From contig OX597833.1 of NCBI GenBank assembly GCA_951406725.2, positions 62,310,001 to 62,374,000 on the forward strand: a stretch of 64,000 nucleotides of DNA, read 5' to 3'. A program made the translations under genes and the position numbers. The first letter of the stretch is position 1; every line of letters starts with the position of its first letter. Shown in pieces: positions 11,843 through 50,708 of the stretch. The stretch comes from Octopus vulgaris (Eukaryota). A model generated the notes under the pieces. It made no database searches. It was not told the origin of the DNA and saw only the letters and a program-made list of their open reading frames with translations.

Positions 11843-12146
11843 TGGAGGCACAATGGCCAAGTGGTTAGGGCAGCGGACTCGCAGTCGCAGGATCGCGGTT
11901 TCGATTCCCAGACCGGGCGTTGTGAGTGTTTATTGAGCGAAAGCACCTAAAAGCTCCACGAGGCTCCGGCAGGGGATGGTGGTGATCCCTGCTGTACTCT
12001 TTCACCACTTTATCTCTCACTCTTTCTTCTGTTGGCCTGCTCACTTAGCCAGCAGGGTGGCGTCATTCGAAGGCTAAAACAATGCAAACGCATTGTGACC
12101 AGCGATTGTACCAACATCTGATGGTCTGGTCAGTCACGTGATCACA

Positions 12147-34972: not shown

Positions 34973-35064
34973 GGTAGCGTGGCCGAGTTGGTCTGGTCTA
35001 AGGTGCTGGTTTTAGGCGCAAGTCTCTTCGGACGGAGGCGTGGGTTCGAATCCCATCGCTGCCA
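34973..35064 (+). tRNA. tRNA-Leu(TAG)-derived gene, probably a pseudogene (92 nt, two internal micro-duplications)
   Basis: GGTAGCGTGGCCGAG...TAAGG...CTGGT-TT-TAG-GC...GTGGGTTCGAATCCCATCGCTGCCA closely follows the metazoan tRNA-Leu(TAG) sequence. Acceptor and T stems pair; T5 tract at 35073-35077. Extra TGGTC in the D-arm, extra CGGA in the variable arm, G-A mismatch in the anticodon stem. Confidence 0.85.
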
Positions 35065-37726: not shown

Positions 37727-38150
37727 TCACATCATCATCATTGTTCGACTGTGGTCGAGACAATGGAATTTACTATGTTACGTCAGACTTCACGGTCCAT
37801 CATAGCATTACGGAGGTCCTGTTGCTGGATACCTGTATCCCTGGAAATTACATCAGGGTAGGAGAGTGTCCGCCCTCTGGCATCGCGAGCAGATGGCTTC
37901 CAGAGGAGAAGAGTAGAAATTACCTCATTTTCAGCTCTACAACAATGTCCATCAAACTGGATTCTTCTACCTTTCACAATAGATGATACAGGTGGTAATT
38001 TCCCATATATTTGTACTTTGGTTGGATGACGCTTCCATGAGAGATTTTGAGCTCTTGTAAGGAGGCAAGGGTAAGTTCCATCCAACCGCCTCTCAAGCTT
38101 CTTTTATAACGTCCAGGTTTCTGAGCCATATAGTAGAATTGGGTTGACTG
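37727..38150 (-). mobile_element. RTE-clade LINE 3' fragment (degenerate)
   Basis: Minus strand LLYGSETWTL*KKLERRLDGTYPCLLTRAQNLSWKRHPTKVQIYG...RRIQFDGHCCR...LLLW...DLRNAMMDRE, typical of the RTE post-RT region; in-frame stop; (GAT)n tail. Confidence 0.75.
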
Positions 38151-39669: not shown

Positions 39670-39849
39670 TATGTTTGATGTAGGCGGCCAAAGAGATGAA
39701 AGAAGAAAGTGGATCCAATGTTTTAATGATGTAACAGCCATAATATTTGTCACTGCATGTAGCAGTTATAATCTTGTACTACGAGAAGATAACACTCAAA
39801 ATAGACTTAAAGAATCTTTAGAATTGTTTCAAAGTATTTGGAATAACAG
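39670..39849 (+). CDS. GNAS: G-alpha-s coding exon (180 bp), G3/switch II-III
   Basis: tttgcag acceptor, AG|gtgagt donor; [59 protein letters not shown](R); DVGGQ with the Q227 equivalent and Gs-type [14 protein letters not shown]. Confidence 0.98.
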
Positions 39850-39888
39850 GTGAGTACAACCTCTCGTTTACTACTCTTTACATATTTC

Positions 39889-40326: not shown

Positions 40327-40600
40327 CATAATTTTCCTCCCCCTTCTCCTTCTTGCTTGTTTTCCCCCTTTTCCTTAAGAAGGGCTTGGGTTGGGTCCTA
40401 GCACTTCTCAAGCAGTTCTATATATTTCATAAGAAAGAACAATAATATTATATATACATACATATATACACTTGGTCATTAGATATATTCTTTGAAGTAT
40501 CTTTCTTATACTGTATTGCAACATATACACAGAATTACATTTTATACCTAAAAATGAGTATTTTTTTCTAATTCATCATTTTTTCAACTAAATCATGATT

Positions 40601-40743
40601 CATTGTTTACATTCATTATTTACATTATTTACATTTGACGGATATTTGTCCTCATCTTGTTTGTTGCTATCACAACGTTTCAGCTGATATACTCTCCAGC
40701 CTTCTTCAGGTGGGTTCTCATTCCTAAGGTATTTTTCGATGTA

Positions 40744-40779
<36 letters not shown>

Positions 40780-41114
40780 ATCACTGCCTGGAATCGAACT
40801 CAGAATATCTTGGGGTTAGTAGCCTGTGCTCTTAACCACTATGCCATGGGCACATATGGCGTAGTGGTTAAGAGCACGGGCTACTAACTCCAAGATACCA
40901 AGTTCGATTCCAGGCAGTGACCTGAATAATAATAATAACATCAAAAAATACCTTAGGAATGAGAACCCAGGTTGGAAATTTCCCCAGGACGCCTGAAGAA
41001 GGCTGGAGGGTATATCAGCCAAAAGGTTGTGTTAACAACAAACAAGATGAGGACAAATATCCATCGAATATAAATAGTGTAAATAATTCATTATCTCTCA
41101 ATTATATAACTGTA
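40601..41114. mobile_element. Palindromic (head-to-head) non-autonomous retroelement with tRNA-like head and minimal hammerhead, Penelope-like
   Basis: Arms about 40617-40846 and 40856-41086 are reverse complements. Each has A-box/B-box-like motifs (TGGCGTAGTGGTTAAG...AGTTCGATTCC) and CTGAAGA-A-GGCTG-N10-CAGC(C/T)-GAAAC-GTT. Direct repeat TAAATCATGATT at 40589-40600 and 41115-41126. Confidence 0.7.
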
Positions 41115-41436
41115 TAAATCATGATTTCAACTAGATATAACTACTTACATCATCAGGGGAAACCCATAGAAAGAATGGAAACTGATAGATTTATAGCTGC
41201 CGCTGTTTGCCAACTGGGTATTGACAGATTTTAGCAAAATCTTCCAAATTAATTATTTTTCTGTTCTGCCTCGCCAGTGGCATCTAAAACGCACCATTCA
41301 AGCATGGTCAATGCCAGTGCTACCTGACTGGCTTCTGTGCTGGTGGCACGTAAAAAGCACCATTCGAGCTGATATGTACATACATACGTACGTACGTACA
41401 TACATACATACATACATACATACATACATACAGACA

Positions 41437-41738: not shown

Positions 41739-41869
41739 ATGGTTGAGAAGTATCTCAGTAATTCTATTCTTGAATAAACAAGATTTATTGGCCGAGAAAG
41801 TGAAAGCTGGAAAGTCAAAAATCGAAACATATTTTGCTGATTTTGAACGTTACGTAACACCTGTAGACG
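41739..41869 (+). CDS. GNAS: G-alpha-s coding exon (131 bp), G4 box
   Basis: ctcctcag acceptor, G|gtaagg donor; [43 protein letters not shown], with NKQD guanine-specificity motif. Confidence 0.97.
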
Positions 41870-46797: not shown

Positions 46798-47103
<306 letters not shown>

Positions 47104-49894: not shown

Positions 49895-50364
49895 GTAAGT
49901 ATGAAAAAAATTTACATACACCAGCATATAGAACACAAAGAGATGTGTATATAGATATGTGTGTATGTCTATATATGTATATATATATATATATATACAC
50001 ACACATATTGGTGAAAGAGTACTTGGTACATGATTTTTTTTTTCCTACATTGCTCTGTTTTTAGCCAGCATGGAGCATGGACTTTAAATGGTGATAATGA
50101 TGTATATGTGTGTTTATATATATATATATACATATAAAATACATAGGTTTGGTGATACAGACGGGATAATGGGACTCAAAGCATGAATGTACAATTATAT
50201 TTTTGTTTTTATTATCATCAGAAGTTATAGAGTCACTCAAGGACAGATAGGTTCATTCATTGGCGCTTATCAAGGTGATCCCTTGAGTCACTCTGAAACC
50301 TCGGCTGATTAATAATAACAACAATAATAATAATAATGATAATAATAATAATAATAATAATAAT

Positions 50365-50708
50365 GACAACGTGTCTCTAAAAGAAATGGAGAAACTTTCA
50401 AAATACAAAGACCTGGAAATAGAGGTAACTAGAATGTGGAATCTGAAAACAGAAACAATTCTTATCATAGTAGGTGCATTAGGCATGATAAAAAAATATT
50501 CAGACAAATACATAATAAAAACACCAGGACTTACAAACACATATAACATACAGAAAATTGCACTACTGGGCATTGCACACATCCTACGCAGAACACTTTC
50601 AATACAGTAACCATCAGAGCATCACAACAAATCACAGCACATACCTAAGGCACACAGAGCTGTGCTCGGTAGTGAAGTGAAAGCACGATATAAAAATAAA
50701 ACTATTGA
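50365..50708 (+). mobile_element. R4/Dong-like non-LTR retrotransposon 3' fragment (restriction-like endonuclease C-terminus + 3'UTR) inserted in (TAA)n
   Basis: ORF 50371-50610 KEMEKLSKYKDLEIEVTRMW...IIVGALG...IQKIALLGIAHILRRTL shows the K..KY..L / IVGALG REL signature; (AAT)n on both sides, the known Dong target. Confidence 0.75.

Follow-up and report, generated by a model that had tools for sequence, protein, structure and literature searches.

A tRNA-like head in the terminal repeat of an octopus Penelope/Poseidon-type element as a candidate Pol III promoter

As reconstructed from its copies, a repeat family of Octopus vulgaris is an autonomous Penelope/Poseidon-type element whose pLTR begins with a tRNA-like head, and sequence comparisons put at about two in three the probability that this head is used as a Pol III promoter. 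Two observations, a pile-up of copy 5' ends at the head start and the absence of T4 runs, point to transcription by Pol III, perhaps extending over the entire coding unit. A more far-reaching proposal is tentative, and the odds lie somewhat against it: the whole 2.6-kb coding unit would have adapted to Pol III, with a captured tRNA promoter, an ORF purged of T4, a Pol III RNA that serves as template and possibly as uncapped mRNA, and tens of thousands of SINE-like copies shed.

An inverted pair in a Gs-alpha intron

The family was met at 40589..41126 of the window (the whole 64,000-nt stretch analysed), where direct reading of the sequence finds two copies of one ~250-nt unit diverging from about 40845. 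The initial annotation had described two head-to-head units with A and B boxes, (AAT)n and hammerheads, and re-reading confirms the arrangement and its coordinates. The plus arm (40844..41112, +) is a solo pLTR copy with a tail, 92.7% identical to the family consensus over 40853-41112. Its tRNA-like head has an A-box at 40857..40867, seen in the sequence and backed by a regular-expression check on the consensus, and a B-box at 40901..40911; a (AAT)n microsatellite follows at 40925..40938 and, at unit position +115, an ATG (40959..40961) that in full-length relatives starts an 835-aa ORF. A minimal type I hammerhead at 40988..41033, in which GAAAC has become AAAAG, lies within the first codons of that ORF, and the arm ends in the optional Penelope tail (41088..41112, ~25 nt), the second RT start site. 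The minus arm (40601..40847, -) is an inverted solo pLTR copy with an A-box at 40836..40846 that carries one C-to-T-type change, a B-box at 40790..40800, an expanded (AAT)n and a 22-nt deletion before its minimal type I hammerhead (40671..40712), which keeps an intact core but only 3 bp of stem I. Both hammerheads had been described in these terms. Matching segments of the two arms at 40601-41112 are 89-96% complementary. The tail, a correction to the first description, is present on the plus arm only. In MFE structure predictions neither local hammerhead stands out (z -0.7 and -1.4), and the minus one does not adopt a hammerhead shape.

A direct-repeat search places 12-bp target-site duplications at 40589..40600 and 41115..41126 (+), again as annotated. 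Such flanks are typical of the family, with target duplications of at least 8 nt around 31 of 45 inverted pairs vs 4.7% of mismatched flank pairs. A hammerhead-like word on the minus strand of the right flank (window 41115-41160, at 41156), beside the palindromic target duplication, is probably there by chance; the flank is single-copy. Host exons lie on either side on the plus strand, one upstream at 39671..39850 and one downstream at 41740..41869 (ends approximate), whose translation continues the upstream exon and which we take to be Gs-alpha from its protein sequence; the last coding exon of the gene stands at 46980-47103 (+). The reported placement in a GNAS intron is therefore upheld. 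The unit at this locus is almost certainly the pLTR of a Penelope/Poseidon element, and 40589..41126 is a dead, ordinary insertion of that element, unremarkable in itself; the interest lies in the family.

The autonomous unit and its short copies

The closed consensus unit measures 2,646 nt and runs from head through (AAT)n, ATG, hammerhead, tail, RT and GIY-YIG to the stop codon, after which 24 nt lead to the next head. Its 835-aa ORF, with RT and GIY-YIG, opens inside the repeat and reads through the hammerhead, which lies at +149 with a predicted cut after +184. Upstream of the head, many copies enter the C-terminus of a GIY-YIG-type domain, and the partner ORF was found by walking upstream. 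Thirty RT-anchored copies yield one consensus ORF; 23 of them reach the stop codon, 21 of which continue across the head beyond +60, while two have part of the head. The initial annotation had proposed a tRNA SINE that borrows a Penelope end, with identity to an ordinary Penelope pLTR as the contrary outcome. The head itself proves to be part of the autonomous pLTR, and the borrowing is given up. A match between the unit and the pLTR of an autonomous RT + GIY-YIG Penelope, sought in the same genome, is indeed found, but a pLTR with a tRNA-like head is not an ordinary one.

The join between repeat and ORF recurs in 30 loci anchored at the ORF N-terminus, where a pLTR segment (hammerhead/tail) abuts the ORF in 23 by alignment and a tail-like end is seen in 28 by a loose pattern. 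Sister families include P0001 and P0003, at 66-75% identity, and P0005, at 57%. The N-terminal peptide encoded across the hammerhead is conserved in P0005/P0124/P0138, that is, down to relatives at 57% identity, and length variants of a 9-nt repeat before the tail preserve the frame in 79 of 82 copies. The consensus protein shares 37% identity over 796 aa with an 836-aa Anolis protein vs 29%, in the RT only, with a Neptune-like ORF of the same genome; in a midpoint-rooted tree of 23 proteins it stands with the Anolis protein, and two Neptune-like ORFs stand apart (100/100). The labels Neptune-like and Poseidon_Ac on the tree proteins are our own identification rather than database calls. Relatives carry PF00078 and PF26215, and a Pfam search of three single-copy fragments gave no significant match. 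No intact full-length copy was seen among the copies examined, the longest open stretch being 321 aa, and the 15 of 85 RNA-seq read joints listed include no spliceosomal-intron-type joint near the pLTR. A genome search with the Pfam GIY-YIG domain leads to other, Neptune-like families, with the pLTR at 0 of 50 loci examined, nested solo copies apart. One second PLE family (L109:2464-4806, L110:2439-4781), presumably Neptune-like, appears young, with a 781-aa RT + GIY-YIG frame that is open in 16 of 150 listed matches and is preceded by an ORF of up to 479 aa overlapping it.

A DNA search of the 2.8-Gb genome returns 3,684 candidate copies. Exact genome matches number 2,633 for a 35-nt hammerhead pattern (0 for the reversed control), 3,475 for a head pattern (0 for its control) and 405 for the 32-nt segment that immediately precedes the head (again 0); with thousands of matches against none in controls, the head and hammerhead patterns are not products of chance. 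Corrected by the exact-match rate in copies picked otherwise (9/89, 36/156 and 11/49 for hammerhead, head and upstream segment), these counts give rough estimates of ~26,000 hammerheads, ~15,000 heads and ~1,800 upstream segments. The family is thus mostly short, with about 8 short copies to 1 ORF-linked copy. Its copies have diverged by 5-9% at non-CpG sites, alike in boxes, hammerhead core and spacers; change has accumulated in the A/B boxes and the hammerhead as fast as expected under neutrality (4.6-9.4%), so that no selection is visible after insertion. Family samples come mostly from one chromosome and include a few local duplicates, as do the 90 hammerhead-anchored loci used below, the first places listed on one chromosome.

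An adjacent inverted copy accompanies 54 of these 90 loci. The tail is found on one arm in 46 of the 54 inverted pairs and on both arms in none, 3' ends fall into two clusters near +242 and +267, and the 90-locus sample shows no poly(A) tail at the 3' ends of short copies. Inverted or single copies dominate the sample, direct tandems of the short unit being rare; one such tandem is L019. The inverted pair, the one-sided tail and the short target duplication are ordinary Penelope signatures, in keeping with published PLE insertion anatomy, where inverted pLTRs, an optional tail and short duplications are described in the accessible parts of PMC3846280 (Adineta Pen2a), PMC8557442 and PMC11167929. 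The earlier attribution of the insertion to Penelope machinery is supported accordingly. A MITE was considered and rejected, as the inverted partner occurs in only 54 of 90 loci and 5' ends vary, instead of the fixed TIRs and fixed length of that class. As 54 of the 90 sampled copies stand in inverted pairs, many long hairpins would be expected in introns, where they might serve as substrates for A-to-I editing. Many copies (L302, L303, L306, L310, L322-L326, L329, L330) consist of a pLTR and only ~200-400 nt of the ORF N-terminus, and some copies of the set then jump to another pLTR beginning at the head, which suggests template jumps between short transcripts.

The consensus hammerhead has the conserved core, stems I and II and a palindromic stem III, and is of the minimal Penelope type that had been proposed; its core, on which the earlier interpretation depended, is intact in the consensus and, among 114 copies chosen independently of the motif, in 52, and the motif is alike downstream of related ORFs. 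The suggested search with hammerhead models was unsuccessful, since Rfam finds neither a tRNA nor a hammerhead match in the element. Read ends from two RNA-seq runs form no pile at the hammerhead cut site or at the head; read ends at the hammerhead site are likewise absent for the anole Poseidon in the available account (PMC11167929).

The tRNA-like head and the polymerase question

Right at its 5' boundary the pLTR consensus has canonical A and B boxes, spaced as in a tRNA gene. Against 25 distinct genome tRNA sequences, sampled under 7 isotype labels, the head aligns best with tRNA-Arg (z 7.7 and 7.0), with Thr close at 7.4. ARAGORN calls no tRNA in the head even at relaxed thresholds, and the head no longer folds as a tRNA. 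By the sequence evidence the head is tRNA-like in its boxes and alignment only; to that extent the original description stands, though ARAGORN and Rfam make no tRNA call. Head and hammerhead are linked family-wide, as had been anticipated: all 30 head-anchored copies enter (AAT)n and 23 reach the hammerhead, and among them no parent SINE with the family head on another body is seen. A/B boxes are absent from all 27 relatives in which a hammerhead-like motif follows the ORF match, so the head appears to be an acquisition kept in the master.

The 5' ends of the copies gather at the same boundary. Among hammerhead-anchored copies that reach the head, 39 of 51 have their 5' ends between -15 and +30; truncation at the head runs at 0.0166 per nt vs 0.0018-0.0033 elsewhere outside the microsatellite, about 8-fold, and 29 of 30 copies anchored on the head begin within -14 to +34. 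In 23 of the 90 copies the end lies at the (AAT)n tract, and 5' ends are therefore also shaped by sequence. An explanation of the pile-up by reverse transcriptase stalling or fold-back at a structured, near-palindromic head start on a longer transcript is very improbable. The head-to-head junction at the locus is indeed near-palindromic (40842-40852), palindromic junctions and self-priming are discussed for PLEs in the accessible text of PMC3846280, and 5' ends are spread over -2 to +12, but copies without an inverted partner start at the head too, and neither the missing T4 runs nor the coincidence of the boundary with the start of a tRNA gene would be explained.

T4 is the metazoan Pol III terminator. 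The sense strand of the 2,646-nt consensus contains no T4 run and 30 runs of four A's. The consensus ORF has 0 vs 3.0 expected under codon-preserving shuffles (P=0.026), a modest deficit under this stricter null, and 0 vs 8.3 expected under AT-biased synonymous choice (0 of 3,000 draws). Relatives are not depleted: two Neptune-like control ORFs contain 8-9 runs, 74 related ORFs together hold 235 observed vs 220 expected, the seven related ORFs longer than 2,300 nt have 4-14 each, and one of 21 longer than 1,200 nt has none; the comparison sets a family consensus against single copies of the controls. Decayed family copies have 0.29 T4 runs per kb. One control ORF (L096) is also low in T4 under the AT-biased null (P=0.006), and G4 runs too are rare in the consensus unit, with one occurrence.

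A search of sequencing runs lists 20 entries that contain the stretch, under five organism labels, none of them recorded as RNA. Of the two RNA-seq runs compared, one has 9,277 records out of 12.9 M that match the element and the other 7,533 out of 12.0 M; the libraries are apparently unstranded, and 82% of matching reads continue into unlike sequence. The pattern fits read-through from host genes, and such libraries are blind to short Pol III RNA.

An ordinary pLTR transcribed by Pol II, with the tRNA-like head as a passenger and the start set there by a TATA-like word at -29 or by an internal LINE-type promoter, is unlikely, though far from negligible. It is a general consideration that the need to translate a protein favours a capped RNA, and besides the TATA-like word an Inr-like word is found near -14 relative to the head. 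Similar motifs are described for the Adineta pLTR (PMC3846280), and Drosophila Penelope has an internal TATA-less promoter (PMC2377424), as far as the available text of either paper goes. Against this reading stand the canonical boxes that the consensus keeps, at tRNA spacing, precisely on the 5' boundary, and a unit that lacks T4 throughout when its relatives have it; the box-less state of all 27 hammerhead-bearing relatives points to a head acquired and kept in the master. Improbable for other reasons is the idea that the short pLTR copies form an independent Pol III SINE, re-amplified from solo masters by the Penelope protein in trans. It would accord with the ~8-to-1 excess of short copies, with the tandem of short units in L019 and with slightly lower divergence of solo heads (5.9% vs 7.4%, a difference biased by the choice of loci). 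Yet 65 ORF-linked and 141 solo repeats have the same majority base at every head position compared; their differences are mostly CpG decay, including one decayed CpG site further down that differs in frequency. The separate SINE family once proposed is thus contradicted by heads with no fixed difference between ORF-linked and solo repeats. The 3' ends, moreover, correspond to two internal start sites and have no poly(A) tail, and the anole Poseidon template, according to the accessible part of PMC11167929, needs ORF sequence beyond the tail, which solo copies do not contain. As to the class of tRNA-derived SINEs, the family has the 5' A/B-box head but is not a separate non-autonomous lineage sharing only a 3' tail, although its short copies resemble a SINE and might be transcribed in the same way.

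Use of the head as a Pol III promoter in the autonomous element, the favoured reading, would work as follows. A tRNA-Arg-like gene or SINE head, inserted into a pLTR, is the probable source of the head. In a tandem or full-length copy, transcription would start at the head, cross the hammerhead and tail and enter the ORF without encountering a T4. The element protein, which might be translated from an uncapped Pol III RNA or from a separate Pol II read-through, would nick AT-rich DNA and prime reverse transcription internally at the tail, as is shown in vitro for the anole Poseidon. For that element, as set out in the available part of PMC11167929, reverse transcription begins at two internal sites, which delimit the tail, and ORF sequence past those sites is required in the template; the ORF and the hammerhead overlap, and cleavage by the hammerhead is aided by the protein but not essential in vitro. 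Since the first priming site would lie only ~240-270 nt from the 5' end of a head-initiated RNA, most products would be short, SINE-looking pLTRs. Two cDNAs, one per start site, could then be joined head-to-head between target duplications, and full-length copies would require a longer RNA, primed at its next pLTR. Solo copies lack the part of the ORF that follows the tail and would serve poorly as templates; they are therefore better regarded as by-products than as a self-propagating SINE.

Comparison with known elements

In what the accessible accounts describe, the closest counterparts are Poseidon_Ac of the green anole (PMC11167929) and Adineta Pen2a (PMC3846280), which share with the octopus family a single RT + GIY-YIG ORF of ~835-840 aa, which begins within the pLTR and overlaps with the hammerhead there, an optional tail that results from two 3' ends, inverted pLTRs, short target duplications and AT-rich targets. 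The octopus family differs from both in its tRNA-like A/B-box head, in copies that start at the head and in having no T4 run; its hammerhead cut also falls ~70 nt after the ATG, not 26. Minimal type I hammerheads of metazoan PLEs (PMC4209133) have the same CUGAUGA core, extra base before stem II, G-C closing pair and palindromic minimal stem III as the octopus consensus, and the same 5-bp stem I. Mostly they are dispersed single motifs from truncated PLEs, as here, and the available part of that survey describes no tRNA head.

Among non-coding elements, SINEs, TRIMp3 and Sm-alpha are known to have Pol III promoters. Schistosome Sm-alpha/Sj-alpha (PMC6765202, PMC2770079) likewise combine a Pol III-type, tRNA-related promoter with a following hammerhead at high copy number, but, in the sections consulted, they are non-coding and often tandem, with no ORF, whereas the octopus repeat terminates a coding PLE and has a minimal hammerhead. 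TRIMp3 elements (Cassandra, Helenus, Ajax; PMC10886601) share a Pol III promoter derived from a small RNA within the terminal repeat, for which insertion of a SINE is proposed. By the same partial account they are non-autonomous LTR elements of up to ~1.3 kb, whose autonomous partners are expected to use Pol II; the octopus carrier, in contrast, is an autonomous PLE. Non-LTR retrozymes (PMC7229834; bioRxiv 10.64898/2026.07.22.740005) share type I hammerhead repeats and are non-coding and pLTR-related. They form head-to-tail tandem arrays that give circular RNA, unlike the mostly dispersed or inverted octopus copies. The bioRxiv source proposes retrozymes as pLTR derivatives, and its accessible text mentions neither tRNA nor promoter. 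The octopus family was not placed among non-LTR retrozymes, as head-to-tail arrays with a hammerhead per unit are not its arrangement.

For an octopus genome, 190 Penelope-like families are listed in PMC13282606. No report of a tRNA-headed pLTR, or of a Pol III promoter in the terminal repeat of a coding Penelope, was found in the papers and preprints searched, which were mostly open-access. The claim of an undescribed hybrid thus survives, within that literature, for the tRNA-headed pLTR and fails for the pairing of Pol III head and hammerhead, known from Sm-alpha/Sj-alpha as far as the schistosome sources show. What would be new, by the literature searched, is that a coding Penelope element has a tRNA-type promoter in its pLTR. 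If this promoter is used, the family would represent a retrotransposon switching polymerase, internal priming on head-initiated RNA would explain the excess of short copies, and a route would be open from pLTRs to hammerhead SINEs and retrozymes. If the whole unit is adapted to Pol III, the family may be a snapshot of the birth of a Penelope-dependent SINE or of an Sm-alpha-like element. For annotation this is a warning that, in genomes of this kind, what looks like a SINE family can be the end of a Penelope element.

Other abundant tRNA-headed repeats, with heads 63-68% alike and different bodies, are present at 11853-11908 of the window and in L019, L035, L091, L220 and L309. A well-conserved interspersed repeat with coding-like sequence (L261-L299) is unrelated to the pLTR family and was left out of all counts. 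Elsewhere in the window, ARAGORN calls a tRNA of undetermined type at 34973-35064 (+), and open frames at 37783-38103 (-) and 50287-50610 (+) may represent C-terminal remnants of non-LTR retrotransposons, which they resemble.
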